From the NCBI GenBank assembly GCA_025058225.1, contig JANXEE010000024.1, positions 1 through 25,729 on the forward strand: a stretch of 25,729 bases of DNA, written 5' to 3'. Position numbers and translations under genes: made by a program. The first letter of the stretch is position 1, and every line of letters starts with the position of its first letter. Source of the stretch: Candidatus Calditenuaceae archaeon (GTDB taxonomy: Archaea > Thermoproteota > Nitrososphaeria_A > Caldarchaeales > Calditenuaceae). Below, piece by piece: positions 790 to 24,280 of the stretch. Below the pieces are notes generated by a model. It did not search any database, was not told where the DNA came from, and worked only from the letters and a program-made list of their open reading frames with translations.

Positions 790-1253
790 CAAAGCAGCAC
801 CACCCTGATCTCCTCACCAGAGGAAGAGGCCTCGTCGAGCGCTATTCCCGAGACGCTCCGGGTCTCCAGAGCCACCGCGTCTGAGGCTGAGGCCGAGTAG
901 TTCTGCGGATGGGAGGGCGCATTGACCTGCACGAACCCTCCTGCTCCCGCTGCGACGAGGCTCCCCCTCTGAACCGATGACGCCGCCTTCACCCTCACAA
1001 CGTTGCCGACGAAGACCACAGCGCGCGTCCCCCTAGCTCCTGGCTCGAGCTCCTGACCCTCTGCGAAGATCGCCACAGCCCTCTTCCCGACGGTCGTCGA
1101 CGGCCTCAGGACCGTGTCCTCTTCACTCACCACCAGCGGCTCGCCACCTCTCAGTACCACGCTCGAGACGTTGTGGACGTCGTAGCTCGCCACCTCACCG
1201 GCTCTCCAGAGCAGGGTTCCGGCCCTGCCTATACCCTCAGGTGCAGGCACCAC
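789..1253 (-). CDS. small head-module protein, DUF2190-like (head decoration / scaffold position)
   Basis: 154-aa ORF directly upstream of the capsid gene. GTG start at 1253 is preceded by AAGGAGGTGG. The pattern GEPLVV..AVAIFAEG..AVVFVGNVVRVKAASSVQRGSLVAAGAGGFVQV...SGIALDEASSSGEEIRVVLL resembles the Gly/Val-rich beta-protein family (DUF2190) commonly found between protease and capsid genes in lambda/HK97-like head modules. Family assignment is from memory, not searched. Confidence 0.5.
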   Translation of the reverse strand: MVPAPEGIGRAGTLLWRAGEVASYDVHNVSSVVLRGGEPLVVSEEDTVLRPSTTVGKRAVAIFAEGQELEPGARGTRAVVFVGNVVRVKAASSVQRGSLVAAGAGGFVQVNAPSHPQNYSASASDAVALETRSVSGIALDEASSSGEEIRVVLL

Positions 1254-2289: not shown

Positions 2290-2290
2290 G

Positions 2291-3535
2291 CTACCACCTC
2301 TGCTCCCTCAACACCCCTCCGGAGAGGCAGTAGGTCCGCGTCGAAGAACCGCCCGAGTCGTCCTGAAGCCTCCACCCCGCGAGCCTCAGCATCTCCCTCG
2401 CCTCCTCGATCGATATGATGGGAGGGTTGCGCTCATCTCCCCTTGCGGCCGCGAGCACGTCCTTCACGTCCCACGACGGCGACTGCGGCTCCCCGAACAT
2501 CACCCTCACGCTCGACTGTCCGGAGTCAATTCCGTGCTGCCCTAGGACCAACCCGATGATCTCCTCGTACTGCGAGCTCAGGAAATCCCTGAGCAGAGCC
2601 ACCTCCGGCTCCAAAGTCTCGATGGCAGCCTGAGCGCTGGCGTAGGTGAACCCGGTGTAAGTTATCAGACGTATCAGGGGATTCCTGAGACCGGTGACGA
2701 CCTGCCTGTCGAGATGCTCTATCAGCTCGTAGAACCTAGTCTTCGAATCGACCTTCACCTCAAGTTGCTTCAGGTCGAAGTCCACGACGAGGTCCTGTCC
2801 GACCACAGCCTGCTCGTATGCTTCCTTGAACGAGTCCCTCGCGGCCCTCGGAACGATGAAGACGCTCCTCTGCGGGTACTTCTCGACGAGGATGCGGGCT
2901 GCGTTGTCGATCCTCTCCTTCACCTCCAGAAGGGATGGCCTCCTTACGGTCTTGCCCCTGACCGGGTACCCTACGCCGGGCCTGACCAGGTGGTTGATCA
3001 GCCCCTCACCGAAGGCACCCTCGTTGATCGGGTTGAAGCGGAGATGCCAGACCTCCTCCGCATCCAACTCGACGACCCTGCCGTGCCAGCTCTGAACGTA
3101 CCTCATCGCTCTGCCATCGGGGGCCCTGATGACCGCCCTGATGCTCGAAAGGGGAACGTAGTGAAGCGTGTTGACCCTTCCCTTCGGAACGAGGTTGATG
3201 AACGCGTTGCCGCTGAGGACGACGTCCCTCGCGACCTTCACGTGCAGGTCCGCGAACCTGTTCCGCCTGAGGAAGGAGTCCACAACCCTGAGCAGCTCCC
3301 TGTCCTCGCCGACGAGGTAGTATCTGGCCCCTATCCTGGCCACGATCGAGTCCACAGCGAACTTGACGTAGCTGTCCCTTCTGTACCACTCGACCAGCAG
3401 GTCGAAGTCCGGGTCCGAGTACTCACGATGGTGATAGTCAGCTGAGCCCAAAACACTGGGCTGATAAGGGACGTTGCTCGGCTCCTCTTTCCGTTGAGCC
3501 GCTCTCGCCAGCGCCCTCATCGCTTGCCTCAGCAT
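2291..3535 (-). CDS. phage/virus portal protein (HK97-type portal family)
   Basis: 414-aa ORF of portal-like size and pattern (...YRRDSYVKFAVDSIVARIGARYYLVGED...VLSGNAFINLV...). It is the first gene of an operon followed by head proteins and an HK97-fold capsid protein. ATG is at 3535. Confidence 0.75.
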   Translation of the reverse strand: MLRQAMRALARAAQRKEEPSNVPYQPSVLGSADYHHREYSDPDFDLLVEWYRRDSYVKFAVDSIVARIGARYYLVGEDRELLRVVDSFLRRNRFADLHVKVARDVVLSGNAFINLVPKGRVNTLHYVPLSSIRAVIRAPDGRAMRYVQSWHGRVVELDAEEVWHLRFNPINEGAFGEGLINHLVRPGVGYPVRGKTVRRPSLLEVKERIDNAARILVEKYPQRSVFIVPRAARDSFKEAYEQAVVGQDLVVDFDLKQLEVKVDSKTRFYELIEHLDRQVVTGLRNPLIRLITYTGFTYASAQAAIETLEPEVALLRDFLSSQYEEIIGLVLGQHGIDSGQSSVRVMFGEPQSPSWDVKDVLAAARGDERNPPIISIEEAREMLRLAGWRLQDDSGGSSTRTYCLSGGVLREQRW

Positions 3536-3703
3536 GCCGGTTCCTGTGATCGGCGGAACTTCATTTTTCTGTTAAAACTAACAAATTTAGCAAATCTGAG
3601 ACAACGGGAACTATTACTCGCGTGTGACACAGATAATATTCCTTGAATGCAACGACGGTTATCGAAGTACAACGATATCATGATTAGATTACGTTCACGA
3701 AAC
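3536..3703. promoter_or_regulatory. AT-rich divergent control region between head operon (minus) and RHH/tail operon (plus)
   Basis: 168 bp that is markedly AT-rich in a GC-rich context. TATA-like stretches are GTTAAAAC at 3571-3578 and ATAATATT at 3633-3640. Direct repeat CAAAT(N4)CAAAT is at 3582-3595 with an AAATTT palindrome core at 3584-3589. Hairpin GTTCC(N10)GGAAC at 3540-3559 sits just upstream of the portal ATG. Confidence 0.5.
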
Positions 3704-3898
3704 ATGCCGGGATATCACGTTACGATCTACGTCGAGGAGGAACTTCTCAGAAGGATAGAGGAGGCGAGGGGAGAAGTTCCGAGGAGCAGGTTCATCGTCA
3801 AGCTGATAAAATTGGGTATGAACGTGTTAGAGGATGACAAGGGGGGATCGCAGAGGAGTCAAACGAGGTTTACACCCTATAGAAAAAATGTATTATGA
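3704..3898 (+). CDS. ribbon-helix-helix (CopG/Arc/MetJ-like) transcription regulator
   Basis: MPGYHVTIYVEEELLRRIEEARGEVPRSRFIVKLIKLGMNVLE has the N-terminal beta-strand plus two helices typical of RHH proteins. The track ORF starts at 3647. In-frame ATGs at 3680 and 3704 fit RHH architecture better, and the exact start is uncertain. Confidence 0.65.
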   Translation: MPGYHVTIYVEEELLRRIEEARGEVPRSRFIVKLIKLGMNVLEDDKGGSQRSQTRFTPYRKNVL

Positions 3899-3946
3899 TA
3901 ATTGTAACAGCGAACAGAAATTTCCCCTGTTGTGCAATCATATGCG

Positions 3947-4870
3947 ATGAGGTACGTCGGAGTGGGGAGGGAGTCGTCACAGGGAAATCCGGTATCGCCG
4001 CAGTCCTATATGGATCCAAGGAGGGTAGAAGCCAGCCCCATAGTCGAGGATCAGGTGATAAACACGCTGTCGAGCAGGTTCCCGAAGCTGAAGCACCTCG
4101 GGGGAGTGAGGGTGGAGGGAGAGATAGAGGGGCTCTTCGGGCCGGACTCGTTCTCGATGCTGGTGCTCAGTATGGTCTTGGGGAAGGTTCAGTCGACAGC
4201 CTCGGAGGGTTACAGCGTCCACAACTTCAGCCCGCTGGAGATAGGAGAGGTGCCGAACACGTACACCGTTGAACTGTGCGACGAGGGAATAGCCAGGGTA
4301 ATCGTTGGGGCCTTCGGTGACTCGATGGAGCTGAACCTGAGGCCGGACGAACCGGTCTCCGCGTCGTTGTCGTTTCTGGCACTGAACGAGCTTCAGGGCA
4401 CTCCTAGGACTCCGACATTCTCCAGAGTTCATCCGGTGAGGCCCGAGGACGTGGTCTGCCTGATCGGTGGACAAGCTGTAGAGTTGGACGAGCTGACGCT
4501 GAAGCTCGAGAACGACCTTTCAACGGACCATTACACGATAGGCTCGAGGACGTTACCCCGACACGAACTGGGGGAGTTCAGCGTCGCTGGGACCTTCTCC
4601 GCGAGGTTCAGGAGCAGGTCCCACCTGGACAGGTTCCTGAACGGCCAGGAAACTTCTCTCTCGATAAGGATGAGGAGCGGCACCGTCGCTGCGGGCATCG
4701 ACAGAGAAGTGGTCGTCGAGCTTCCGAGAGTCTACTACTCGACTTGGAGCTGCGAGGTGGTACCCTCCGAGAGGTCGGTGCAGGAGGTGGAGTTCAGGGC
4801 CCTGGCGACCTCGGCCGGCGACCCCCCGGTCAGGTTCAGAGTCCAGACAGAGGAGCAGTTACCGGGGTGA
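3947..4870 (+). CDS. major tail (tail tube) protein, siphovirus-like
   Basis: About 307 aa, immediately upstream of a small chaperone-like ORF and the tape measure gene. The segment GGVRVEGEIEGLFGPDSFSMLVLSMVLGKV...HNFSPLE...TYTVEL resembles tail tube protein families. The first ATG in the ORF is at 3947; the track start at 3932 is GTG. Confidence 0.55.
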   Translation: MRYVGVGRESSQGNPVSPQSYMDPRRVEASPIVEDQVINTLSSRFPKLKHLGGVRVEGEIEGLFGPDSFSMLVLSMVLGKVQSTASEGYSVHNFSPLEIGEVPNTYTVELCDEGIARVIVGAFGDSMELNLRPDEPVSASLSFLALNELQGTPRTPTFSRVHPVRPEDVVCLIGGQAVELDELTLKLENDLSTDHYTIGSRTLPRHELGEFSVAGTFSARFRSRSHLDRFLNGQETSLSIRMRSGTVAAGIDREVVVELPRVYYSTWSCEVVPSERSVQEVEFRALATSAGDPPVRFRVQTEEQLPG

Positions 4871-4874
4871 GGCG

Positions 4875-5162
4875 ATGACCCACAGGATCGAGGTGAACGG
4901 CAGGCCCTACACGGTGAGGTTGAGGGCGAGGGCATGGCCCCACCTCCAGACCCTTGCGAGGGCGCTGACCGAGACGCCTCCCAGCGACGACAGGATTGAC
5001 CTAGCAGAGAGGAGGGTCCTCGAACTCTGCGTGGAACCCTACCCGGAGGGCGATGAGGACGTGGTGCTGGCGAAGTTGATGGCCCTCTACGCCTCGCTGA
5101 TGAGGGAGGCGGCCGCGAGCTTTCGGGAGGAGGGAGATGCTGGCACTGGGAAGGGTGGCTGA
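4875..5162 (+). CDS. tail assembly chaperone-like protein (gpG position)
   Basis: 95-aa acidic ORF (MTHRIEVNGRPYTVRLRARAW...) directly after the tail tube gene. GGTGAGG precedes the ATG. The call is mainly positional. Confidence 0.45.
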   Translation: MTHRIEVNGRPYTVRLRARAWPHLQTLARALTETPPSDDRIDLAERRVLELCVEPYPEGDEDVVLAKLMALYASLMREAAASFREEGDAGTGKGG

Positions 5163-5286
5163 GCGGTTCGGGAGGAGGCCATCGGAGATGCTGAGGGGGA
5201 GGATGGAGGACCTGATACTGGACGTGTTGGTCGCGAGGGAGCTGGCCCATGAGGAGGCGAGGAGGTGGAGGTCGTTCAGGAGGTAA
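5137..5286 (+). CDS. small overlapping ORF (49 aa), possible chaperone extension or independent small gene
   Basis: Below the track size cutoff. The frame is open from 5104. ATG at 5137 is preceded by GAGGAGGGAG. Translation: MLALGRVAERFGRRPSEMLRGRMEDLILDVLVARELAHEEARRWRSFRR. It overlaps the 3' end of 4875..5162 (+1 frame relative to it) and the 5' end of 5265..5684. Confidence 0.3.
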   Translation: MLALGRVAERFGRRPSEMLRGRMEDLILDVLVARELAHEEARRWRSFRR

Positions 5287-5684
5287 GGGTCCACGGCCTC
5301 AAGGAGGCGCTGAGGGCCCTGAGCGCTGAAGCTCTGTCGAGATCGGAGGGCCTGCTGGTGGAATCTCTGGCCAAATTGTCGGCCTCGAGGGCGTCGTCCT
5401 ACTCGCCGAAGAGGACCGGAAAGCTCGCGGCCAGCATCTCGGTCAGAAGGTTGAGCGGAATGAGGTTCTCCGTCACACCGGGTGTGAGCTACTGGCCCTA
5501 CTTGGAGTTCGGAGTGAGGCCGTTCGAGCTGAACTCACGGGTCTACATCCAGGACGTAGGTTTCAGACACGTCCATGTCCACCCCGGGATAAGGCCTCAT
5601 CGATTCCTGAGGAGGGCGGCCAGCGAGTCCCTGCGCGAGTTGGGAAAGCTGGCGAGGTCGTTGCTTCGTGAGCGAGTCGTATAG
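5265..5684 (+). CDS. HK97 gp10-like head-tail/tail completion protein
   Basis: The 139-aa product contains KRTGKLAASISV...VSYWPYLEFG, matching the TG.L..SI ... Y...(V/L)EFG signature of the HK97 gp10 family. GTG start is preceded by GAGGAGG. Confidence 0.65.
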   Translation: MEVVQEVRVHGLKEALRALSAEALSRSEGLLVESLAKLSASRASSYSPKRTGKLAASISVRRLSGMRFSVTPGVSYWPYLEFGVRPFELNSRVYIQDVGFRHVHVHPGIRPHRFLRRAASESLRELGKLARSLLRERVV

Positions 5685-7263
5685 GATAGGAATAGAGTTC
5701 GTTGGAAGGGACGACGCAACGGATGAGATCGCATCGGTCTCTGAGGGGCTCAGGAGGCTCGGAGAGGCAAACGAGGAGCTGGTCTCGAGGGCGAAGGAGG
5801 TGGTCAGGCAGTCAAAGGAGCAGAAGACGGTCCTGAGGGCTGTTCAGGAGGAGTCGCAGGTCTTCGGGGAGAGGGCGCAGTTCGTGGCGAGGCAGCTCAA
5901 CGAGGTCTCGGGGCTCGGCTCGTCGCTCTCCAGGATCATTACGTCCCTCGACGCCTCGATGACCAGGCTCCACACGGCCCAGTTGGTCCTCGCGTCGGCT
6001 CAAGAGAGGCAGACTGCTCTCCTCAGGGAGCTCAACGCCCAGTTCGGGCTACAGGCGTCATCGGTCGAGGAGGCCGGACAGGCCCTGAGGAGGATGCTGG
6101 AGACAGGTGAGGCGAGCGGACCCGTTGCGGAGCGGGTCAAGACGGCTTTGAAGGGCGTTGAGGAGGTGCAGAAGCAGCTGCAGAAGGCCAGCAGCGACGT
6201 CGAGTCGTCGTTGAGGAACTTCCAGGCCCAGCTGGTCGCCGTGGGACTGAGCTCGATCGAGCTGGTCCCGAAGTTCATGTCTGTCGTTAACGGTCTCTCG
6301 GCTGTCGTTTCGATGTCACCGGCGCTGAGCTCCGCGCTGAGTCTGGTGAGGGGAGCGTTCACGGCGCTCTACGCCTCCATGGGCCCCGTGGGGTTGGTAC
6401 TGATGGGCATAGGCACAGCGGCTGCGTTGCTCGTCGCGAACTGGGAGAAGGTCGCACCGGTGTTCGAGGGCGTAGCGTCAACAGTTGGGTCGGCGCTGGG
6501 TCCGGCGCTAGAGTGGCTGCTGAACAACGTCCTCTCACCGATAGCCACGTTCCTGACATCGATGCTGGCGACGGCCCTCGAATGGGTCACCGGTCAGCTG
6601 CACACCTTCTCGATGATCGCTGAGGCCCTCTCAATGGGGCTGACGTGGCTCTGGAAGAACGTGCTCGAACCCCTGGCAGGGTTCCTCGTCGGCCAGCTAG
6701 TCAACTCGTTCCTGATTACTTCTGGATTAGTTGAAGGGGCCACTGGGGTCCTCAGCGAACTCGGCGAGACAGCCGAGTGGGTTTGGAACAACGCGCTGGT
6801 GCCCCTAGCTCAGTTCGTCGCCGAGCAGGCCGTTGCGGCTTTGAGGGCCTTCGGTCAGGCTCTGGGCTGGCTCTCCGAAGCAGCTCGTAACACGTTCTCA
6901 GCGATTCACAGGGCCGCTGAGTCCCTCCTCAAACCGGTGCTGGACCTCATCAACTCGGTGGTCTCGGGAATACGGTCAGCGTTCGCGTGGCTTCACGATC
7001 AGCTGGTAGGCCACTCCATCGTCCCAGAGCTCTGGAAGGAGGTCGTGCGTTGGACCGAATGGGGATACGGTGAGACCTTGGAGACGATGGGGAGGCTCCT
7101 CTCGTCGCTCGACGCAGCAGGCTCAGGGCCGTCGCGTTCGATAACGCTGAACGTCACGCTGAACGTTAACGCACCGTCAACCGGAGAGATGGACTGGGAG
7201 AGCGTTGCCGAGATGGTCAGCAGGGCCATGCTCCACAGGATCAGGATGGCAGGGCCCCTCTGA
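5668..7263 (+). CDS. tail tape measure protein
   Basis: 531 aa. The N-terminal third is coiled-coil-like (EANEELVSRAKEVV..., QKQLQKASSDVESSLRNFQAQL). The central part is hydrophobic with periodic Trp-containing repeats. It sits downstream of the tube and chaperone genes. GTG start has GAGGT 9 nt upstream and overlaps the gp10-like gene by 17 nt. Confidence 0.8.
   Translation: MSESYRIGIEFVGRDDATDEIASVSEGLRRLGEANEELVSRAKEVVRQSKEQKTVLRAVQEESQVFGERAQFVARQLNEVSGLGSSLSRIITSLDASMTRLHTAQLVLASAQERQTALLRELNAQFGLQASSVEEAGQALRRMLETGEASGPVAERVKTALKGVEEVQKQLQKASSDVESSLRNFQAQLVAVGLSSIELVPKFMSVVNGLSAVVSMSPALSSALSLVRGAFTALYASMGPVGLVLMGIGTAAALLVANWEKVAPVFEGVASTVGSALGPALEWLLNNVLSPIATFLTSMLATALEWVTGQLHTFSMIAEALSMGLTWLWKNVLEPLAGFLVGQLVNSFLITSGLVEGATGVLSELGETAEWVWNNALVPLAQFVAEQAVAALRAFGQALGWLSEAARNTFSAIHRAAESLLKPVLDLINSVVSGIRSAFAWLHDQLVGHSIVPELWKEVVRWTEWGYGETLETMGRLLSSLDAAGSGPSRSITLNVTLNVNAPSTGEMDWESVAEMVSRAMLHRIRMAGPL
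6508..6819 (+). repeat. three 16-aa Trp-repeats with an exact 44-aa period inside the tape measure gene
   Basis: LEWLLNNVLSPIATFL (aa 281-296, nt 6508-6555), LTWLWKNVLEPLAGFL (aa 325-340, nt 6640-6687) and AEWVWNNALVPLAQFV (aa 369-384, nt 6772-6819). A half-period copy ALEWVTGQLHTF starts at aa 303. Confidence 0.8.
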
Positions 7264-14744: not shown

Positions 14745-14999
14745 GACCCTCGGATAGCCCGCTATACTTCAGAATAAAGGCTTGACCCTGCGGAAAGGAC
14801 TAGGTCGACCAGGGCGTGGAGGACGGCCCCACGGGCAGAGGCCCTCTCAGGGTTATCCCAGGCCCCTGAACTGATACGGCGATGGTCGGAGTCCAGAGGA
14901 GGGACGGGGGAGAGGAAGCGATGGGGGGCGCGCAGGTAGATGACCGGGACTCGAGAGCTCGGGCAAATGGTGATGTATACTGCGTGTCAATGTAGGGTC

Positions 15000-15479
15000 G
15001 TGAGGCGGCTGGCCTGGGTGGGGTTGGCGGGGGCCATCGCGGTGATGCTGCTGGTCACGCTGATGGCCGTGAACCCCGACAGGGGCGGGGCGGGCGGAGG
15101 GCCCTGCGTAGACAGGCTGGGGTTCGACGAGAGGAACGGCGTGACACTGACTCTGAGGCCGGCCTTCGTCGGAGGCGGTGTCAGGTCGATCGAGTACACG
15201 ATCGTGAACAGGAGGAGCGAGCCGATCTACTTCGGCGCGCCGTACGACGTCCAGAGGTTCACCGACGGCAAATGGGTCACGGTGGACTGGATGAAGGACC
15301 GAGTCTGGATAATGATACTCTACTCGCTGAACTCCGGGGAGTCGATGACGCTTACGGTTGAGCTCCCGGAAGACATCGAGCCCGGATGCTACCGACTCGT
15401 CAAGGAGGTGATGCTGCGGGACACCACGGAATCCAAGTGGAAGGTAGAGCTGGTTGCGACGTTCGTCGTGGAGCGTTGA
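15000..15479 (+). CDS. hypothetical secreted or membrane-anchored protein with Ig-like beta-rich domain
   Basis: The track ORF is 14940..15479. GTG at 15000 gives a classic signal/anchor N-terminus ((M)RRLAWVGLAGAIAVMLLVTLMAV) and lies about 24 nt downstream of the TATA-like ATGTATAC (14973-14980). Starts at 14940 or 14967 remain possible. I recognise no family. Confidence 0.5.
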   Translation: MRRLAWVGLAGAIAVMLLVTLMAVNPDRGGAGGGPCVDRLGFDERNGVTLTLRPAFVGGGVRSIEYTIVNRRSEPIYFGAPYDVQRFTDGKWVTVDWMKDRVWIMILYSLNSGESMTLTVELPEDIEPGCYRLVKEVMLRDTTESKWKVELVATFVVER

Positions 15480-15530: not shown

Positions 15531-15641
15531 GCCGGGGTACCTCAGCTGGCTAGAGGCGTTTGCCGGACAGAGGGCCGCGCTCATAATCCCTCGGTGAGGG
15601 ATGAATCGCGGTTGTCGTGGGTTCGAATCCCACCCCCGGCA
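15531..15641 (+). tRNA. tRNA-Met(CAU) (elongator or Ile2-type) with two introns
   Basis: Acceptor GCCGGGG (15531-37) / CCCCGGC (15634-40). D-arm CCTC-AGCTGGCTA-GAGG (15540-56). Anticodon stem CCGCG (15575-79) / CGCGG (15607-11) with loop CTCATAA (15580-86). Variable loop TTGTC. T-arm GTGGG-TTCGAAT-CCCAC (15617-33). Discriminator A at 15641. There is an extra ~17 nt at 15558-15574 and an extra ~20 nt at about 15587-15606. 111 nt minus 37 nt gives a canonical 74 nt. CCA is not encoded. Confidence 0.8.
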
Positions 15642-15810: not shown

Positions 15811-16269
15811 TCACGCTGTGGTGCAGGACAATGTTGCAGTTGTCGGTGCCCATGGGGCGTTTCCAGTTCCCAGAGTGGCCAGCACCGCAGTCGGGTAGGA
15901 CTTGCCGCCTGCGCTGTAGAACGCAAGCTCAACCGTAACTCCGGGAGGTGGGGACGCTACGTCTACGTCACACTGCACTGTCTGACCTACAGCCACCGCA
16001 ACCGGGGTTGTCAGAGTGCCTATGGCCCTTCCCTGCACGACGACCTGAATTATCGAGGTGTCTGCGGATCCGGTGTTCCTCAACCTCACCCTGAACGTGT
16101 TATCGTCGATCATAACCGCCGAGACGATCTCCAGCTTCTCGAACCTCGTGAAGACCCCGACCAGACCCGACGCCCAGAACGCCACCGCGATCGCGATCAC
16201 GATCGCTACCGCAACCAGTATGACCGTCGCGACTACGGGGCTTATCGCCTTCTTTCCCCGCGTTCTCAT
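15811..16269 (-). CDS. archaeal type IV pilin-like protein (class III signal peptide)
   Basis: N-terminus MRTRGKKA|ISPVVATVILVAVAIVIAIAVAFWASG is a typical archaeal pilin N-terminal domain: basic leader, Ala at -1, then ISPV plus a hydrophobic helix. A beta-rich C-terminal domain follows. The TATA-like ATAAATATT at 16298-16306 lies upstream. Confidence 0.75.
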   Translation of the reverse strand: MRTRGKKAISPVVATVILVAVAIVIAIAVAFWASGLVGVFTRFEKLEIVSAVMIDDNTFRVRLRNTGSADTSIIQVVVQGRAIGTLTTPVAVAVGQTVQCDVDVASPPPGVTVELAFYSAGGKSYPTAVLATLGTGNAPWAPTTATLSCTTA

Positions 16270-16428
16270 TTCACCCTGTTTGAGCTCTATCCAGAAGATA
16301 AATATTCACACGTATGAGTCTGATGAACCGAGAGAACTAACTGACTAACGAAGTGAACCCAAAAGGCACTAACTAATATTAATAGATATGCGGTATTTTG
16401 CCGGTCAGACACGACAGTGATTAACAGT

Positions 16429-16860
16429 TTAGACACAGTTAACGGACTCGACACCGATCACGAACGGCCCCGAGAAGTCACCATAATTGGCCATAAACGC
16501 AGCGGGAAACCTCTTCCCAGTGGAGGTGATCACCACCAGCTCGATCGAGGCACCGACCGGTAGGTTTCCGCTGAGGCGCACGGTGCAGGTCTTCACCGCT
16601 CCGGCACCCACCTCGACACCGACAGGCAGCCGATGGTACACTCTGCCCATCAGCTCGATCGCCGAGATCGAGGAGGCCGCCACTCCCGGGTTCCTAACGG
16701 TGAACTCGATCGTCCTGCCGTCGACGGTCCTCGCCCCGGTGATTTCCAGCCTCTCGAAGGGCGTGACCTGCGCGACGAACCCCGAGGCCCAGAACGCGAC
16801 CGCTACAGCGGCTACCACCGTGACGGCAATGAGGATCGCCGCCTCGACCGAGACCTCCAT
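16429..16860 (-). CDS. pilin-like paralog with atypically short acidic leader
   Basis: Clear paralog of 15811..16269: AVAVAFWASGFV..FERLEI..FTVRNPG versus AIAVAFWASGLV..FEKLEI..VRLRNTG. The N-terminus is MEVSVEAAILIAVTVVAAV. The upstream in-frame stretch to the stop at 16939-16941 has no ATG, GTG or TTG, so ATG 16860 is the start. Confidence 0.65.
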   Translation of the reverse strand: MEVSVEAAILIAVTVVAAVAVAFWASGFVAQVTPFERLEITGARTVDGRTIEFTVRNPGVAASSISAIELMGRVYHRLPVGVEVGAGAVKTCTVRLSGNLPVGASIELVVITSTGKRFPAAFMANYGDFSGPFVIGVESVNCV

Positions 16861-16884
16861 CCAGCACAGTGAACGAACGTCCAG

Positions 16885-16891
16885 TATATTT
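16885..16891 (-). promoter_or_regulatory. TATA box (AAATATA on minus strand) for the leaderless pilin paralog
   Basis: Its centre is about 28 nt upstream of ATG 16860. It is flanked by the CCAG/CTGG inverted repeat (16881-16895). Confidence 0.5.
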
Positions 16892-16967
16892 CTGGAGCGC
16901 TCTTGTCCGCCCGCTCGACACGTGGACCCGAAAAGCTTTTACCGAGTCTAGACGTAGATGAAACAGC

Positions 16968-18746
16968 ATGGGATTCTCCGACTCCTTCGCGTCCTTCTCC
17001 TTCGCCTACTTCAGGACCTTAGGCAGTAAGATCGTCCTCCGCTTGGCTCCAGGCATACCGGATAAGCTCGACTCCACCGGGAAGCGCCTCCACCCGGAGG
17101 TCTTCGCGTCGATGGTGATGGGGGCCTTCTTCATCTCGCTCGCGGTCACCGGGGCCGCTATGGCCGCTGTATACCTGGTCACGCTGAACCCGCTCTACGT
17201 TGTCCTTCTCGTGCCCATACCGGTGCTGGTGCTGCTCTTCGGCATAGCCTATCCGTACCTCTCCGCCGCCAACACCTCGTCCATGTACGAGAGCGAGGTC
17301 CCCTACGCAGCCGCATATCTGGCAGTCATGTCCACGGGCGGCATACCGCCGTTCAAGAGCCTCGAGCGCCTCGCCGAGACCGATCTCCTCCCGAGCATCG
17401 CCAAATCGGCACAGGTGGCCCAGATACACGTCAAGATCGCAGGCGAGGACCCCGTCACGGCAATTGAGAAGATGGCCAAGGGCATACCGTCGAAGGAGTA
17501 CAGGGACCTGCTGCTGGGATACGCGTCCACGCTCAGGAGCGGCGGCGACGTCGTCCACTACCTGATCCGGAAGACCGAGCAGATCTTCACTGGCAGGATG
17601 GGGACGATGAGGATCGTCGGCGAGAGGATGGGCATGCTGATGGAGGGGTTCGCCGCGATCACGATGATGCTCTCGCTGGTCCTCTTCACGATCTACATCA
17701 TCTCGAGGGCCCTTCCGTCGGAGTTCATGGTGATGCCCCAGGAGCAGTTCGTGATCATAGCCTACGTGATCCTGCCCACCCTCTCGATCGTCTTCGTCTA
17801 CATCGCCGACATCAGCCAGCCCAAATACCCCCAGACCGACCCGCGGCCAATGAAGGTCTTCTACCTCACGATACCGGCTGGACTGGCGTTCCTGGTCCTC
17901 TTCGTCTTCCCCTTCTTCTTAGCCGAGCTGAGGACGATACAGCCCTTCAACTTCACCTCCTCCCTCATGGTCGGGTTAAGGTCCGCGATGGGCCTCGAAC
18001 CCGGCTACGAGTCGTCTCTTGCGCTCTGCCTCACCTTCATCGTCCTCTTCCTGCCGGGCGCGGTGGCCTTCAGGACCTACAGCTCCGAGAACTTCTCCGT
18101 CATCCACGGGATGACCCTCTTCCTCAGAGACCTCACGGAGGTCAGGAAGACCGGACTGAGCCCGGAGCAGTGCATAATCGACCTCTCCCGGAACTCCTAC
18201 GGTGCCTTCTCTAAGAGGCTGAAGGAGATCGCGAGACAGATAAGCTGGGGAATACCGCTGAAGAAGATCTATCAGGACTTCACCAAGCGGACCTACGGCT
18301 GGCTGGAGAAGGCCGGCATGTTCATCCTGATCGACGCGATCGACGTCGGCGGTGGCGCTCCCGAGACCCTCGAGGTCCTCACGAGCTTCTCCGAGGATCT
18401 GGAGGAGATAGAGAGGCAGAAGCGCGCAACGCTCAGACCGCTCATGATGATACCGTACCTGACGGCCATTCTACTGGTAGTGGTCGTGGTCATACTGATA
18501 GTCTTCATGAGGGAGCTCCTGAAGGTCGCCAGAATGCCCATCTCGACCGCCGAGTTCATCGGTTCCTTCCTCCCGCCGGTGATCTTCATCGCCGCGATCA
18601 GCGGGCTCGTCGCCGGTAAGATCTCCACCTCGAGAATCGCAGGGGGCTTCATGCACGCCACCATACTGTCGGTCGTCTCGCTGTTGGCGATCTGGATATC
18701 CGGAGTGATGGCCGTACAGTTGTTCCAGCTGCCCTCCGTGGGTTGA
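16968..18746 (+). CDS. type IV pilus/archaellum platform membrane protein (FlaJ/TadC/PilC-like, two T2SS-F domains)
   Basis: 592 aa and polytopic. It has two cytoplasmic T2SSF-like modules: ...GEDPVTAIEKMAKGIPSKEYRDLLLGYASTLRSGGDVVHYL... and ...GIPLKKIYQDFTKRTYGWLEKAGMFILIDAIDVGGGAPETL.... It is divergent from the pilin genes. Confidence 0.8.
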   Translation: MGFSDSFASFSFAYFRTLGSKIVLRLAPGIPDKLDSTGKRLHPEVFASMVMGAFFISLAVTGAAMAAVYLVTLNPLYVVLLVPIPVLVLLFGIAYPYLSAANTSSMYESEVPYAAAYLAVMSTGGIPPFKSLERLAETDLLPSIAKSAQVAQIHVKIAGEDPVTAIEKMAKGIPSKEYRDLLLGYASTLRSGGDVVHYLIRKTEQIFTGRMGTMRIVGERMGMLMEGFAAITMMLSLVLFTIYIISRALPSEFMVMPQEQFVIIAYVILPTLSIVFVYIADISQPKYPQTDPRPMKVFYLTIPAGLAFLVLFVFPFFLAELRTIQPFNFTSSLMVGLRSAMGLEPGYESSLALCLTFIVLFLPGAVAFRTYSSENFSVIHGMTLFLRDLTEVRKTGLSPEQCIIDLSRNSYGAFSKRLKEIARQISWGIPLKKIYQDFTKRTYGWLEKAGMFILIDAIDVGGGAPETLEVLTSFSEDLEEIERQKRATLRPLMMIPYLTAILLVVVVVILIVFMRELLKVARMPISTAEFIGSFLPPVIFIAAISGLVAGKISTSRIAGGFMHATILSVVSLLAIWISGVMAVQLFQLPSVG

Positions 18747-18751
18747 TTGGA

Positions 18752-20347
18752 TCACTCAGACCTCGAAAGCTCGCTCAAGAGTCCGGAGACCACGGACGTT
18801 AAAACCTGTCTGAGAACGACGTCACTTGGCGATGAAACGTCGATGAGTTTGATGCCGAAGCTCTTGGCGATGGTCTCAACGGTCGACGGCCACTTCGCCA
18901 CTGCCAGCACGTGAACCTCCTTGACCTCCTTCTCCAGCCTGAGCCAGACCGCCTCCGAGAGGACCTCGCCCGCACCCCTGTACGGGGCCCCGTAGGACAG
19001 GAAGGCCGCCACCGGTACGTCGTCTCGCTTAACTAGGAGATCCACGACGTGAGGTGTTCCCATGGAGTCCAGCAGTACGGAAGGCGCCTCTACTCTCAGC
19101 CCAGTCTCCTGCAGGAGACTGTAAAGCATCACCAGCGGCCTCTTCTCCTTCTCGAGGTACTCCTTGTACTCCGGCTTGAGCCTGAAATTGTAAAAGCGCT
19201 GATACCTTCCGTACTGAGGGTCGTAGCGATTCCCACAACTCCTGCATGTAAACTCGGTTCTAGGTATCTCGGAGACCGATCCACACGAGTTACATCTGAA
19301 GAGGGTGGAATAGAGGACGAAGGTTGAGCTCTGCGACTTGCCGACTGCACCCGCCGCGTCAGAAACGGACGATCTGACCTCCTCGCTTCTTATCCTGCAC
19401 TGCGGACACTCATAATAAGCGAGCTTCATGAATGACAGTAAGGGCCCCAGATACCCGCAATTCGTGCACTGAATAACCTCCTGGCGTTCTATGTCCTCGG
19501 ATTTGCAGTACATACAGGCGAGCTCGTAAAACGCATCGATGCTGTAGCACTTGGGACACGACAGCGTCTTGAAAGCGAAATCGCCCTCCAGCACACCTTT
19601 CCTCCAGAGCGAGATCAACAGCTCTAATACCGACCGCGGCTCCAGACCCAGCGACTCCTCTACCTCGCGGTATCTGCCTCCTAACGGTGCTGAGTGATCC
19701 TTCAACGGTTTGAGGGGCTTACCGTGCTCCACTAGCCACTCAACCAGCGTTAGCTCCGTATGAGAGAGGGTGATGACCGTAGGTGGTGCGTCCTGGAACT
19801 CCGGCACCTTAGTGACGATTTGCGGCTGATCGGGAGCCCGGGTAGGTTGAACGGTCGGTCCTGCGGACACCTCTTCGCTCAGTTTCGGCGAGGGGGACTG
19901 GGCCACCGTTTCGGGCGGCGGGACCTGGACGCGCCCCTCTTCACGCTGTTTGGGGACCTCGACAGCCTTCTCAGACTTCTTAGGAGTGCTCGACGCAAGC
20001 ACACGCACTAACGCACCGCCCAGACCTATCGCGGGAAGAGGGACAGAGAACACGACGTGTCTTCCGACAGCGGCCAACCCTTCAGGGGTGATGAGAGCCG
20101 CAACGACAGTTCCAGCGAGCCATCCCAGCAGCACACCGATTACTGAGAGTATGTTCATGGAAAGGCGCCACATGAAGGCCATGACGACACCTAAGATCAC
20201 ACCGCCGAGTATCGAAGGCATGAAAAGGAAGAACTGTGACGTAAAGGAGAAAAACACCAGGGCGATAGACGTTGCAACACATCCCACAATTATGTTGACC
20301 ACAAGAGGTATCAAAGTTCTAAAAACGCCCGCTGATACCTTCCTCAT
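18752..20347 (-). CDS. membrane-anchored wHTH plus triple zinc-ribbon protein with uncharacterised C-terminal alpha/beta domain
   Basis: About 4 N-terminal TM helices, a Pro/Glu/Lys-rich linker and a wHTH-like segment (LTLVEWLVEHGKPL...RSVLELLISLWRKGVLE). Three CxxC...CxxC pairs follow: CPKC/CMYC, CTNC/CPQC and CNSC/CRSC. The C-terminal domain ends ...HVLAVAKWPSTVETIAKSFGIKLIDVS. The track start at 20392 is GTG. ATG 20347 lies about 31 nt downstream of the TATA-like AAAAATATAC, so it is the preferred start. Confidence 0.7.
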   Translation of the reverse strand: MRKVSAGVFRTLIPLVVNIIVGCVATSIALVFFSFTSQFFLFMPSILGGVILGVVMAFMWRLSMNILSVIGVLLGWLAGTVVAALITPEGLAAVGRHVVFSVPLPAIGLGGALVRVLASSTPKKSEKAVEVPKQREEGRVQVPPPETVAQSPSPKLSEEVSAGPTVQPTRAPDQPQIVTKVPEFQDAPPTVITLSHTELTLVEWLVEHGKPLKPLKDHSAPLGGRYREVEESLGLEPRSVLELLISLWRKGVLEGDFAFKTLSCPKCYSIDAFYELACMYCKSEDIERQEVIQCTNCGYLGPLLSFMKLAYYECPQCRIRSEEVRSSVSDAAGAVGKSQSSTFVLYSTLFRCNSCGSVSEIPRTEFTCRSCGNRYDPQYGRYQRFYNFRLKPEYKEYLEKEKRPLVMLYSLLQETGLRVEAPSVLLDSMGTPHVVDLLVKRDDVPVAAFLSYGAPYRGAGEVLSEAVWLRLEKEVKEVHVLAVAKWPSTVETIAKSFGIKLIDVSSPSDVVLRQVLTSVVSGLLSELSRSE

Positions 20348-20373
20348 TTCTCTGCTATGTACTGACAATTCTC

Positions 20374-20383
20374 GTATATTTTT
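20374..20383. promoter_or_regulatory. TATA-like element (GTATATTTTT on plus, AAAAATATAC on minus)
   Basis: About 31 nt upstream of ATG 20347 on the minus strand. Being AT-symmetric, it could also fire rightward into the structured ORF-free region 20405-20565. Confidence 0.4.
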
Positions 20384-20681
20384 GTTTAGCACGTGTCAAC
20401 TAGTGCATTAGTCTAATTTCGGTTCTGCCTCAGAACCTCAACTCCTGATTCCGGTCCAGGCGCCCCTTTAGGCGTCTTATAAGACTCTGGTTAGAGCATC
20501 CTTGGACGAGGTACGGGCCATCTCCCGTACAGGGTGCCCGGACACGTCGGCATCGGTCCGGTTTTAAACTTACAGACGAATTGGCTTATCGACCTCCATT
20601 TTATCACGTCTATTTAAGAATATTCATAAATGACAAATCGAAAGGACGAATTATTGGATCGATGGACACGGGGTAGGCCGG

Positions 20682-21875
20682 GTGTTGAACGCATCGAACC
20701 GCCTCACCGACGTGACGATCTTCATGTCCAGCATCGCGCTATCGACCGCGCTATCGACCGGCTTGCAACCCCTCCTCCCCTATTTCATCAGAGGCCTCGG
20801 TGCTACCGTTGAGCAGGTCGGTCTGGTGCTTGCCCTCTCGAGGGTGATGTACCTCGCACTCTCACCAATAGGCGGGGTTCTAGCAGACTTGTGGGGGAGG
20901 AAGACCGTACTGGTAATATCACCGTTGGTCGCGGGCGTTGCTTATCTTCTATTGGCCGAGTCGACCGACTGGCCCTCATCGATAATCCCGCTGACGCTGA
21001 TCATGCTCCCCGTAGCGCTCACGGGACCGGCCGTCTTCGCTTACATAGCCGACCTCTCGTCCGCGGAGAAGTACGGTCGATTTTACGGCCTGTACTTCGG
21101 TGTCGTCAACGCGGCCACCGTCGTGGGGTACCTGATTGCCGGACCACTCGTCGAGGTCAGCGGTTATAAGGCCGTCTTTCAAGTCACCGCACTGACGCTC
21201 CTCTTAAGTGCGGCCCTGCGGATCGCGCTGAAGGAAACCCGTACCCGAAAGGACTACACAACGATGGATCTCAGCCTCCTGCTGAAGAGCTCTGTGAAAG
21301 CGACATCTAAGGGACCGCTGCCAGCTCTCATCACGCTCAGGAGCCTGAACCTTGCGCAGATATGGGTTCTGACCGGAATCGTCATACCGCTCGTCGCCAG
21401 AGACGTGGCTCAACTGAGCGAATCGGACCTGACCATGATGTTCGCGATCGAATCGATCGTCTTCGCGTCCCTCTCCACGCTCGGAGGCAAGTTGGTAGAG
21501 GGTGAGAGGTGGTTCCTGTTCATCTGGTTGGAGATAGTACTGCGCTCGTTGAGCGTGTTGGTCCTCATAACAATAAGCACGTGGTTCGGTGTTTTACTCG
21601 CGCTGCTTCTGGGATCCGGTTTAGCCATCTTTATCCAGCCATTCGTTGACTCCAGAACTTCTGCTATCGTCAACGGGTCCATAAGGGGAGGAGTCTGGGG
21701 GATACAACAATTGCTGTACAATGCGTCTATAATAGTCGCCACTTATGGCGCCAGCCTCGTGTGGGATACGCTCGGCTATCGAATCGCTATATGGTTCACC
21801 ATGCTGCTGGTGATGTTCATGGTCCCGGTATTCTATCAAATCCGTCGCCGGATTACTTTGGCAGATGCGCGGTGA
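20682..21875 (+). CDS. MFS transporter
   Basis: 397 aa with about 12 TM helices. The MFS loop motif is GGVLADLWGRKTVL. The start is GTG at 20682, with an alternative ATG at 20724. TATTTAAG at 20611-20618 lies upstream. Confidence 0.8.
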   Translation: MLNASNRLTDVTIFMSSIALSTALSTGLQPLLPYFIRGLGATVEQVGLVLALSRVMYLALSPIGGVLADLWGRKTVLVISPLVAGVAYLLLAESTDWPSSIIPLTLIMLPVALTGPAVFAYIADLSSAEKYGRFYGLYFGVVNAATVVGYLIAGPLVEVSGYKAVFQVTALTLLLSAALRIALKETRTRKDYTTMDLSLLLKSSVKATSKGPLPALITLRSLNLAQIWVLTGIVIPLVARDVAQLSESDLTMMFAIESIVFASLSTLGGKLVEGERWFLFIWLEIVLRSLSVLVLITISTWFGVLLALLLGSGLAIFIQPFVDSRTSAIVNGSIRGGVWGIQQLLYNASIIVATYGASLVWDTLGYRIAIWFTMLLVMFMVPVFYQIRRRITLADAR

Positions 21876-21981
21876 TCTTTTCCATATTACCGTTCAAAAA
21901 CGCACTGTTGATCACAAAAATGAAAAACTGTTAGGGGACAGGACCGAGAGCTTAATCTTTTGGATATTGGTGTATTATCAG

Positions 21982-22854
21982 ATGGCCTCTGAGGAGATAA
22001 AGTCGAACGTTCTGGCCGCACTGGCTGAGCTTGCCTTCTCGGGCACGACCCTCATCAAGCCCATGTTCGACTCGCAGTCCCCGACCGGAGTATCCTATCC
22101 CGACGCTGATATGGCTTTTAACACTAAGGGCGCCGAGACCGAGGAATTGCTCGATAATCTGCACAGGGCCGGCATACTGAAGAGGACCCTTTTAGATGTC
22201 ATAAGGGCATGTCCGGTATGCGGACACGTCGATGTGGAGGCAAGGGAGGCGTGTCCGAGTTGTAAGTCCCTGAACTTGACGGTTGAGGACCGTAAGGTGG
22301 TCTGCATTAACTGCGGGACAGTATCCCAGTCTCCCGAGTTCCTGTTGCACTGCGGCAAATGCGGAAACCTATTCCCCCAAGAGGCAGCTAGGTTGCGCCC
22401 GCTCTTCGCCTATCTGATCGCCAAGTCGGCGCTTATGGACCAGCGAGGAACCCAGAGGACAAACGTGATAGAAATAACAGGGAAACTAGTGATACACGCC
22501 TCGTTAATGGATGAGATGAGGAGGGTCCTGGAGAGCATGACCGAGCGTATCGAGAAGACCGTCAACAAGCTGATCGAAGCGTCAGGTCAGGTAGAGACAA
22601 TCCCACAGGTGACCACTCCGACCAAAGTTTTCACTAGGACTGGCCTATCACCCGCGTTGAGGAAGACCCTGAACGCACTCTCCCAGGTCGGAAGCGCAAC
22701 GGCCGAAGAGGTCGCATCCCTGACCGGAAGGACGAGACCTCTCGAGAGCGTCTATCTCAACCAGCTGGTCTATATGGGGTACGTTACAAAGGAGCGGAAA
22801 GGACAGAGGATTTACTTCAGGCCCTTGAACCCTGCGATGGTGGAGATGAAATGA
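21982..22854 (+). CDS. double zinc-ribbon plus C-terminal winged-helix DNA-binding protein (paralogous core to 18752..20347)
   Basis: The ATG at 21982 (MASEEIKSNV...) lies about 26 nt downstream of the TATA-like TTAATCTTTT. Zinc ribbons: CPVC/CPSC and CINC/CGKC. The C-terminal wHTH is LRKTLNALSQVGSATAEEVASLTGRTRPLESVYLNQLVYMGYVTKERKGQRIYFRP. The track start at 21865 adds an implausible extension that overlaps the MFS stop. Confidence 0.7.
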   Translation: MASEEIKSNVLAALAELAFSGTTLIKPMFDSQSPTGVSYPDADMAFNTKGAETEELLDNLHRAGILKRTLLDVIRACPVCGHVDVEAREACPSCKSLNLTVEDRKVVCINCGTVSQSPEFLLHCGKCGNLFPQEAARLRPLFAYLIAKSALMDQRGTQRTNVIEITGKLVIHASLMDEMRRVLESMTERIEKTVNKLIEASGQVETIPQVTTPTKVFTRTGLSPALRKTLNALSQVGSATAEEVASLTGRTRPLESVYLNQLVYMGYVTKERKGQRIYFRPLNPAMVEMK

Positions 22855-23041: not shown

Positions 23042-24280
23042 ATGGCTAGGACCAGAACATCGATGGGGTTTATCGGTCATCGAACTCGTGTCGCGGTTAA
23101 AAGTCATTTGGGGATCTCGCCAGCCGTTGCGACCGCGATTCTGGCTAGCGTCACCCTTTTCCTAGGTATTTTACTCATCACGCTCAGTACCGGCTGGTTC
23201 AGCGTTAGCGCGACCGATCTGAATTTACAGGCCAACCGCGAGATACAGTTGATCAGGACTTCTGGGTTGCTGGTCTTCGAGAGCGTTAGGTACGCAGCAA
23301 ACCCAGCTAATCGTAGTGCAATAGTCAGGAACGTCTCCGAAGTCGAGTTATGCGTGACCAGAGTTGAGTTGATCCACGAAAACGGCACCTTGGCTGGGGT
23401 ATGGCCTACTCCCCCTGTGAGGTGGGCGAGGTGTGACCCGACTGGACTGAATCCCATAAGGTCCAAACAGAGCCTCGAGCTCAGCGCAACGAGGGGGACC
23501 ATACCGCCTTGCATCGACTGCAGCCCCGGAGATCGAATCAGGCTGAGTGTTTGGTACATCGCGAGATCACTTTACGATCAAAACGACCCTGCGAACTCTG
23601 CGGACGAGATGCGCTTCACTGAGACTGTGATCGTCTTCCCAGGAACGAGGAGAGTCGGAATGTGCACTGCAAATTTGGGTAGCAGGTATGTAGTCCTGAG
23701 CTCCATCGACCCGCTCACGAACTATAACAACGGTCGAATAATGGACAGCCCCAACGACAAGGTTTACTTCGGTTTCTCACATCCGACACCAGCAACAGAC
23801 AACCCCGTGCACTTCGGAGTTAAACTAGTGGGACGCGATAACGTCGTAGTCATAAGTGGTGACCTGAGGATAGATGTGCCATACGAGCAAGCCATCGGTG
23901 GAGCAGCTGGCATATCAACGCCCTTCATGGCAGTCGTCAGCGGTTCCTATCAACCGGTTCCATGGGAGTTTTACTTCGACAGAACCGATGACGGAGTGTT
24001 GCACGTCTCAGACATCCGGCTGATAACACAGTACCGCACCTACCTGAGCGAGTTTCCGATTCTAGCGAGCGTTCAGCTGACACTGGGCAAATTATACGGT
24101 GTGGTCGTGCATGGTTTGATCGTTAAAGTGTATTTAACTGATTGTAATGGCAATCTTCTAACGACCCTGTCCTTCACGATCTCAGCGGGAAGAGAGGAGG
24201 AGTGGATCACCGTGTTCATAGACGTCCCTGAGATAATTGAGGTTACCGAGCTGGCGAGAGTGGAGGTGCGCTTCAGATGA
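23042..24280 (+). CDS. large pilin-like surface protein (class III signal peptide plus ~370-aa extracellular domain)
   Basis: KSHLG|ISPAVATAILASVTLFLGILLITLSTGWF matches the archaeal pilin N-terminal domain. Starts at ATG 23042 (MARTRTSMGF...) or ATG 23063 are both plausible. The track extension from 22877 is Arg-rich and unlikely. The stop overlaps the next start (ATGA). Confidence 0.65.
   Translation: MARTRTSMGFIGHRTRVAVKSHLGISPAVATAILASVTLFLGILLITLSTGWFSVSATDLNLQANREIQLIRTSGLLVFESVRYAANPANRSAIVRNVSEVELCVTRVELIHENGTLAGVWPTPPVRWARCDPTGLNPIRSKQSLELSATRGTIPPCIDCSPGDRIRLSVWYIARSLYDQNDPANSADEMRFTETVIVFPGTRRVGMCTANLGSRYVVLSSIDPLTNYNNGRIMDSPNDKVYFGFSHPTPATDNPVHFGVKLVGRDNVVVISGDLRIDVPYEQAIGGAAGISTPFMAVVSGSYQPVPWEFYFDRTDDGVLHVSDIRLITQYRTYLSEFPILASVQLTLGKLYGVVVHGLIVKVYLTDCNGNLLTTLSFTISAGREEEWITVFIDVPEIIEVTELARVEVRFR

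Follow-up and report, generated by a model that had tools for sequence, protein, structure and literature searches.

TackOD1 is a cysteine-rich domain named by Galperin et al. (2018; PMC5847659), who described it as an output domain of response regulators with about 11 conserved cysteines, arranged in five CxxC motifs and one HxxC motif, and who noted that its function 'remains obscure'. Published so far are proteins with TackOD1 alone, with REC-TackOD1 and with REC-wHTH-TackOD1 (REC, receiver domain; wHTH, winged helix-turn-helix), mainly from Thaumarchaeota (PMC5847659). The corresponding family, arCOG06883, occurs in archaeal type IV pilus loci, including thaumarchaeal ones (PMC4858521, PMC5847659), and was grouped by Makarova et al. 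(2016; PMC4858521) with uncharacterised cytoplasmic proteins linked to type IV pili. A literature search returned no mention of TackOD1 or PF18551 later than Galperin et al. 2018. Among the regulators of archaeal surface filaments, the membrane-bound ArnR is linked to archaellum genes, and regulators of the Lrs14/TrmB family control pili and biofilm in Sulfolobus (PMC4858521). Here we describe two TackOD1 proteins, A and B, encoded on a stretch of 25,729 nucleotides from a hot-spring archaeon, Candidatus Calditenuaceae (contig JANXEE010000024.1, positions 1 to 25,729, forward strand; the whole stretch is called the window below). We read A and B as two regulatory or adaptor proteins associated with a type IV pilus locus, a functional reading to which we give a probability of roughly 55%.

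The cores of the two proteins were 29% identical over 108 amino acids (aa) (BLASTP, E=9e-11), and both proteins matched the Pfam profile of TackOD1 (PF18551) above its gathering cut-off of 32 bits, A with 82.2 bits and B with 67.2 bits. The cysteine-free N-terminal sub-domains aligned even when taken alone (hhalign, 89% probability, E=2e-6), and a PF18551 match was found precomputed on all homologues of A and B. Judged by sequence, the paralogy of the two cores exceeds chance. An initial annotation of the window had aligned the cores by eye and had guessed at TackOD1; both proposals held. The segments on which it had relied were located accurately, since 19235-19558 runs from C264 to C371 of A and takes in all three ribbons, and 22210-22362 runs from C77 to C127 of B and takes in both ribbons. 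In A the profile positions 8-131 and 146-188 of 188 were covered, so that its TackOD1 domain is complete, with a CxxC motif where HxxC was expected. In B the coverage was limited to positions 11-130 of 188, which makes its TackOD1 domain a truncated one. A carries six conserved CxxC motifs (12 cysteines) and B four (8 cysteines), compared with the about 11 cysteines given by Galperin et al. (2018). No receiver domain (Response_reg) was matched in A or B by Pfam at E<=0.1. For TackOD1 proteins beyond the relatives of A and B, the picture used here was taken from the literature.

Protein A is encoded on the minus strand at 18752..20347 and comprises 531 aa. Its mechanical open reading frame, 18752..20392, starts at a GTG at 20392 and would give 546 aa; the true start is likely the ATG at 20347, because the homologues begin at this codon and a TATA-like box is present some 33 nucleotides upstream of it. 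Protein B is encoded on the plus strand at 21982..22854 and comprises 290 aa. In this case the mechanical frame is 21865..22854, and the ATG at 21982 is the likely true start because six of six homologues are 290-308 aa long and the TackOD1 profile begins there. Promoter-like A/T boxes and the alignments of homologues agree with both starts.

The N-terminal residues 1-122 of A (19982..20347, minus strand) are predicted to form about four transmembrane (TM) helices, as the Kyte-Doolittle profile was hydrophobic over residues 3-88 and 98-118, with four hydrophobic segments in 3-118. The N-terminus and the stretch behind TM4 are rich in positive charges. On the positive-inside rule, and because of the twelve ribbon cysteines, both termini and the soluble part of A are probably cytoplasmic. 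The anchor is followed by a flexible linker of about 70 aa rich in Pro, Gln and Glu (residues 123-190; 19778..19981, minus strand), which was recognised by hydropathy and alignment and is poorly conserved, with 10-18% identity to the distant clade. The TackOD1 N-terminal sub-domain occupies residues 191-262 (19562..19777, minus strand; Pfam profile positions 8 to about 60) and is probably winged-helix-like (H-b-b-H-H-b), because the homologous part of the B model shows such secondary structure. Three zinc ribbons occupy residues 264-371 (19235..19558, minus strand) with their six CxxC motifs at C264/267, C278/281, C294/297, C314/317, C352/355 and C368/371. The cysteine columns are invariant or nearly so among the homologues, and the ribbons would be expected to bind zinc. 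Ribbon 3, which follows a variable insert (residues 319-345), corresponds to positions 146-188 of the TackOD1 profile. The complete TackOD1 domain of A spans residues 191-384. The helical anchor, the Pro-rich linker and the third ribbon had all been noted in the initial annotation and were recovered here. The architecture of A was kept whole in 14 homologues of 490-550 aa, down to 33% identity, together with the cysteines and the C-terminal motif residues.

The last 147 residues of A (385-531; 18755..19195, minus strand) form a C-terminal alpha/beta domain. An AlphaFold2 model of this domain, based on an 11-sequence alignment, had a predicted local distance difference test (pLDDT) score of 87.3 and a predicted template modelling (pTM) score of 0.82. 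The topology in the model is H-E-E-E-E-E-H-E-H-E-H, and the predicted alpha-beta-beta-beta-alpha-beta core is present. The best Foldseek match in the PDB was AF1548 (1y88, E=4e-5), and further matches were the R2 retrotransposon RLE, the nuclease domains of Cdn1, Can2 and Card1, EcoT38I, VC1899 (1xmx), Bax1 and MspJI. The TM-scores (TMq) of these matches were moderate, 0.4-0.63. BFVD yielded viral proteins whose annotation reads restriction endonuclease, PD-(D/E)XK or Mrr. A restriction-endonuclease-like (PD-(D/E)xK, Mrr-like) fold of residues 385-531 is therefore supported at the level of the predicted structure.

According to the alignment and the model, strands beta2 and beta3 of this domain lack the canonical catalytic D...(D/E)xK (or QxK) motif; beta3 as predicted (444-451, VPVAAFLS) is hydrophobic and has no acidic or Lys residue. 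A conserved polar pattern, E420-x6-D427-x8-(D/E)436-x3-K440, is located in the first three strands; D427 is replaced by Asn in three homologues. Pfam, with 11 members as queries, gave no clan match (Mrr_cat, NERD or others) at E<=10, a PDB profile search and NCBIfam gave no meaningful match, and a PADLOC scan gave nothing significant. When 1.84 billion representatives were searched exhaustively with HMMER, only seven matches resulted, which were essentially members or fragments of the same family, and by sequence the domain is restricted to this family. Two hits of this search were discarded as most likely spurious: in P0022, which gave 11 weak stretches, an unrelated unit of about 100 aa is repeated in tandem, and P0025, a protein of 2965 aa, gave nine. 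The likeness of the tail to Mrr-type domains, as well as the lack of a (D/E)xK signature, had been remarked on before, and the present results bear out both remarks. We lean towards a domain that is non-catalytic or non-canonical.

Protein B is soluble and consists of the truncated TackOD1 domain and a C-terminal winged helix. Residues 1-130 (21982..22371, plus strand) contain the TackOD1 N-terminal sub-domain and two zinc ribbons, with CxxC motifs at C77/80, C91/94, C108/111 and C124/127. A long helix is predicted for residues 173-202, and residues 224-281 (22651..22824, plus strand) were assigned by AlphaFold2 and Foldseek to an ArsR/TrmB/AspA-type wHTH. The full-length model of B was poor (pLDDT 65, pTM 0.30), with a pLDDT of 80-90 in the wHTH segment; from this model the wHTH and, in part, the ribbons were usable. 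Foldseek matched the wHTH with probability 1.0 to AspA, AntR, ArsR, SmtB and MarR proteins. The sequence profiles stayed below their cut-offs, namely Pfam TrmB with 24.9 versus 25.6 bits, HTH_5 with 16 versus 22 bits and NCBIfam ArsR/SmtB with 23.5 bits (E=3.5e-5) versus a cut-off of 55 bits; a Csa3-HTH profile also fell just short. Two homologues of B, P0008 and P0009, carry PF01978. The earlier statement that this copy ends in a winged helix agrees with the confident model segment, the Foldseek matches to AspA, ArsR and MarR, and the near-threshold TrmB and ArsR profiles.

Both genes lie among genes for a type IV pilus. The platform protein T2SSF (UpsF/BasF/ArlJ-like; 16968..18746, plus strand; Pfam T2SSF, NCBIfam BasF and UpsF) converges with A in the window across a gap of 5 nucleotides. 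Upstream of it are two small pilin genes (15811..16269 and 16429..16860, both minus strand) with class III signal-peptide-like N-termini and a weak Pilin_N match, and homologues of these small pilins adjoin T2SSF in all related loci. Between A and B lies a gene for a transporter of the major facilitator superfamily (MFS) (20682..21875, plus strand; 397 aa) of the DHA/Tet-like drug:H+ antiporter type, with a Pfam MFS_1 match of 99 bits and NCBIfam matches. Downstream of B are two large pilin-like or adhesin-like genes on the plus strand, the first at 23042..24280 and the second from 24277 to beyond the window end at 25729. Both have a class III signal-like N-terminus, the second has a Thr-rich tail, and a weak NCBIfam UpsA match was found among them.

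Relatives of A and B were found solely in Ca. Calditenuaceae ('Aigarchaeota'). The 14 A-type proteins of the same architecture were 33-76% identical to A, and when one genome from each GTDB species was scanned, the type occurred in only four species, all of them Ca. Calditenuaceae/Ca. Calditenuis. B-type proteins numbered five in the protein search, with six further metagenome loci, at 45-80% identity. Linkage was surveyed in 19 related loci, some of which are referred to here by their L numbers. In all nine informative loci, each with flanking sequence (window, L003, L001, L004, L005, L006, L007, L011 and L012), A stood tail-to-tail with T2SSF, with gaps of about 5 to 25 nucleotides. On its other side A was flanked by the MFS gene in the window clade and by RFC/Cdc6 in the Calditenuis clade. 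The order MFS then B was seen in 11 of 11 loci, and T2SSE or pilin-like genes were present within 10 kb of B in all seven loci with enough flank (window, L003, L009, L014, L016, L017 and L018). In L014, L016, L017 and L018 the T2SSE ATPase gene and pilin-like genes were located 3-7 kb upstream of MFS-B, and L014 carried T2SSF, pilin, T2SSE, MFS and B on a single contig. Loci L002 and L008 had pointed to a linkage of B to MFS only and not to the pilus; their contigs stop 330-494 nucleotides upstream of the MFS gene, and this interpretation was overturned by the metagenome loci L014 and L016-L018 with full flanks, which contain T2SSE, pilin-like genes and, in the case of L014, also T2SSF at a distance of no more than 10 kb.

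A and MFS-B appear to mark the two ends of a single pilus locus of about 25 kb in the Calditenuis clade, because L016 overlaps the far end of L006/L012 through a 602-aa gene, a 458-aa gene and T2SSE (95% identical to that of L012). In the window clade (window, L003 and L009) a rearrangement has put MFS-B between A and the large pilin-like genes, and in L009 the homologues of the large pilin-like genes are followed by a T2SSE ATPase gene. Both paralogues remain linked to the pilus locus across at least three different gene orders. The initial annotation had placed the pair inside a pilus island and had suggested a survey of its co-occurrence with pilus genes. The island was confirmed by pilus genes on both flanks (T2SSF and pilins on one side, large pilin-like genes on the other), and in the survey of related genomes the linkage held for A with T2SSF (9/9) as well as for B (7/7).

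The proteins of the locus have diverged at very different rates. Between the window and the Calditenuis clade, T2SSF was 82% identical, while A was 35-40% identical and thus diverged about as fast as the pilins. By part, the ribbons of A were 57-59% identical, the restriction-endonuclease-like domain 34-39% and the TM region 22-26%, and the motif residues of A are clearly under purifying selection. In the same comparison the pilins showed 40-50%, the large pilin-like proteins 40-43%, the MFS transporter 51% and B 46% identity. Taken over L001, L004, L006, L012 and L014, the T2SSF identity to the window was 79-83%, compared with only 35-51% for each of the neighbouring pilus-locus proteins, namely A, the pilins, the large pilin-like proteins, the MFS transporter and B; T2SSF is either unusually constrained or exchanged between lineages. 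The spacers of the window also differed in their similarity to L003. The spacer between pilin and T2SSF (16861-16967) and the one upstream of pilin 1 (16270-16428) were about 85-95% identical, whereas the A-MFS spacer (20348-20681) was essentially unalignable, although the flanking proteins were 75-85% identical.

From these data we propose that B acts as a one-component transcription factor, in which the wHTH would read DNA and the TackOD1 half would serve as a sensing or partner-binding module. Its probable targets would be the pilin-like genes next to it and the MFS gene. A would be a membrane-tethered regulatory or adaptor protein located at the cytoplasmic face beside the pilus platform and ATPase. 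It would make use of modules of the nucleic-acid-binding type, TackOD1 and the probably non-catalytic restriction-endonuclease-like domain. The logic of A would be akin to that of the membrane-bound regulators ArnR or ToxR/TcpP, with no homology to them.

The search for an operator shared by the pilus genes and A gave no firm candidate. The sequence GACACGTG occurs only twice in the window, at 16917-16924 (plus strand) and 20390-20397 (minus strand), and each copy lies just upstream of a TATA-like box, of T2SSF and of A, respectively, and is oriented with its gene. Two or more occurrences were also obtained in 24 of 100 shuffles. This weak lead was dropped in view of the shuffles and of its absence at equivalent sites beyond the closest relative, and it may be due to chance. 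Short inverted repeats in the A-MFS spacer were likewise rejected as an operator, as they are not conserved in L003.

Several observations weigh against a regulatory role of the pair. TackOD1 is fused to separate wHTH domains, which suggests that TackOD1 itself may not be the DNA reader. In the B model the elements of its N-terminal sub-domain follow a winged-helix-like order, at medium confidence (pLDDT 58-75), and comparison of this sub-domain with the C-terminal wHTH of B gave no hhalign signal. A and T2SSF are convergent and hence not co-transcribed, and the closest relative retains GACACGTG in front of T2SSF, the motif being absent elsewhere. No contig of the Calditenuis clade was seen to carry both A and B, whose joint locus there is deduced from overlapping synteny. 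Furthermore, the conserved gene order may partly reflect shared ancestry and not selection, because all loci come from one archaeal family.

Other roles were considered for the same proteins. A could be a structural or assembly accessory of the pilus whose ribbons and restriction-endonuclease-like domain contact the platform or the ATPase, with no nucleic-acid role. The invariant tail-to-tail linkage of A and T2SSF is in line with such a role, and a divergence like that of the pilins (35-40% versus 82% for T2SSF) is expected if A co-evolves with variable pilus components. All soluble modules of A are, however, of types that usually bind nucleic acids, TackOD1 was described as a response-regulator output domain (PMC5847659), and core type IV pilus machines elsewhere function without such a protein; we consider a purely structural role unlikely. 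A and B could also form a single circuit, in which membrane-bound A binds B through the TackOD1 cores and B is released to promoters depending on the state of the pilus machinery, similar to Mlc-PtsG or anti-sigma logic. The two cores are paralogous, the genes are adjacent in the window, in L003 and probably in L009, and both belong to one extended type IV pilus locus in the other clade; moreover, A has a tether and no obvious output, while B has an output in its wHTH. The cores are nevertheless only about 29% identical, the genes of the Calditenuis clade are separated by about 10-16 kb, one at each end of the locus, and no B-type gene was found within 10 kb of A in that clade; a direct A-B circuit seems quite improbable.

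In Mrr a winged helix forms the DNA-binding head and is followed by a catalytic restriction-endonuclease-like tail, an order that the domains of A resemble. A might be an active membrane-tethered Mrr-like nuclease, with the winged-helix-like sub-domain and ribbons as head and the PD-(D/E)xK-fold domain as tail. Its substrate would be DNA entering or leaving in the vicinity of the pilus, and its role either DNA uptake and exchange or antiviral gatekeeping. Besides this parallel, the fast evolution of A is compatible with a nuclease, the best fold matches of its tail are nucleases (AF1548, EcoT38I, MspJI, Can2/Cdn1/Card1, Bax1, the R2 RLE and viral restriction endonucleases), and the conserved residues E420, D427, D/E436 and K440 of the first three strands are acidic or Lys. 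Yet the canonical D...(D/E)xK motif is missing at beta2/beta3, with beta3 purely hydrophobic, D427 is Asn in three homologues, TM-scores reach only 0.4-0.63, and neither a nuclease family at the sequence level nor PADLOC matched the C-terminal domain to any significant extent. Activity of this kind is very unlikely. An equally slim chance is given to an extended version in which A is an active tethered Mrr-like nuclease at the pilus platform and B a paralogue that reports the same signal transcriptionally. If A were a nuclease, it would cut or process DNA crossing the envelope, for uptake or exchange linked to the type IV pilus or against viruses that adsorb to pili, and its pilin-like divergence would reflect an arms race. 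The reading of A and B as regulatory or adaptor proteins is the one retained here.

Other genes at the locus edge and in the window were also recorded. Further regulators surround the MFS-B cassette of the Calditenuis clade (L002, 2708-3637, minus strand; L016, 6202-8314 and 10929-11957). Immediately behind B, on the other strand, there is a gene for a 309-aa protein that has a wHTH at its N-terminus and several TM segments at its C-terminus, and the MFS gene is preceded by genes for a CBS-domain protein and for an AsnC-type HTH protein of 403 aa. The edge of the pilus locus is therefore rich in regulators. In the window the pilin genes adjoin a gene (14940-15479, plus strand) for a small protein, secreted or membrane-bound, that carries a Big_14 Ig-like domain (65 bits); the gene is kept at the same place in L003, and the protein is possibly an adhesin or pilus-associated. 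Between the Big_14 gene and the pilin genes lies a tRNA-Met(CAT)-like gene (15531-15641, plus strand) with two putative introns, one of 17 nucleotides after position 26 and one of 20 nucleotides in the anticodon loop. It was missed by default ARAGORN and by Rfam at the gathering threshold, gave a clean cloverleaf when spliced in silico, and its region is near-identical in L003. The first part of the window (1-7263) contains a cluster of tailed-virus structural genes, which is probably a provirus remnant. Among its genes are a portal-like one on the minus strand (2291..3535), one for a tail tube or minor tail protein (3932..4870; Phage_tube_2, 70 bits; phrog_290, E=2e-28), one for neck or tail completion (5265..5684; phrog_5) and a tape-measure-like one (5668..7263).

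The TackOD1/arCOG06883 family and its link to pilus loci are already known (PMC4858521, PMC5847659). What appears to be new is the 4TM-TackOD1-restriction-endonuclease-fold architecture, the architecture of a truncated TackOD1 domain with a wHTH, the co-occurrence of both in one locus, and a host of this family in the Caldarchaeales ('Aigarchaeota'). The family is one of few with a specific link to the type IV pilus loci of TACK archaea, and it has no assigned function; the regulation of archaeal pili other than the archaellum is almost unknown outside Sulfolobus. The locus provides two natural 'dissections' of TackOD1, one fused to a membrane anchor and a nuclease-fold domain and one fused to a wHTH, and A adds an undescribed, family-restricted domain of the restriction endonuclease fold. 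The pair yields testable hypotheses in which TackOD1 is a sensor or partner-binding module that feeds a DNA-binding output, and it supplies soluble constructs for assays of zinc stoichiometry, DNA binding and interaction.

Compared with the described TackOD1/arCOG06883 proteins of TACK archaea, A and B have in common the CxxC-rich ribbon core and the pilus-locus habitat. Some of the published proteins contain a REC domain, whereas A and B are both without one. A has in addition a four-TM anchor and a restriction-endonuclease-fold domain, and B ends its TackOD1 part after ribbon 2 and is fused to a C-terminal wHTH. The host, Ca. Calditenuaceae (Caldarchaeales), also differs from the mainly thaumarchaeal hosts reported so far.

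With the ArsR/SmtB, MarR and TrmB/Lrs14 regulators B shares the fold of its C-terminal 60 residues, at sub-threshold profile scores. Such regulators are often paired with efflux transporters, and B always directly follows an MFS efflux-type gene. In B, however, the wHTH is located C-terminally behind a TackOD1 ribbon module and not next to the dimerisation or ligand domains usual in these regulators, and since its scores are below the family cut-offs, B is not a member of any curated ArsR/MarR/TrmB subfamily. The last 147 residues of A have the predicted alpha-beta-beta-beta-alpha-beta core in common with PD-(D/E)xK proteins of the Mrr/AF1548 type. Unlike these, A has neither a profile match nor the canonical motif, and it is membrane-tethered and encoded in a pilus locus and not in a restriction or defence context.

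ToxR and TcpP of Vibrio are membrane-bound one-component regulators of surface filaments. They and ArnR/ArnR1 of Sulfolobus are similar to A in their logic, which combines a membrane anchor with cytoplasmic domains of the DNA-binding type at surface-filament genes. As the initial annotation had supposed, the architecture of A is different from that of ArnR: Pfam matched no HTH_27/MarR-type domain of the ArnR type (arCOG05969, pfam13463) and no OmpR-type domain in A. Compared with ArnR, ToxR and TcpP, the anchor of A is N-terminal and consists of four TM helices, its soluble part is composed of TackOD1 and the restriction-endonuclease-like domain, and A is at most a putative DNA-binding protein.

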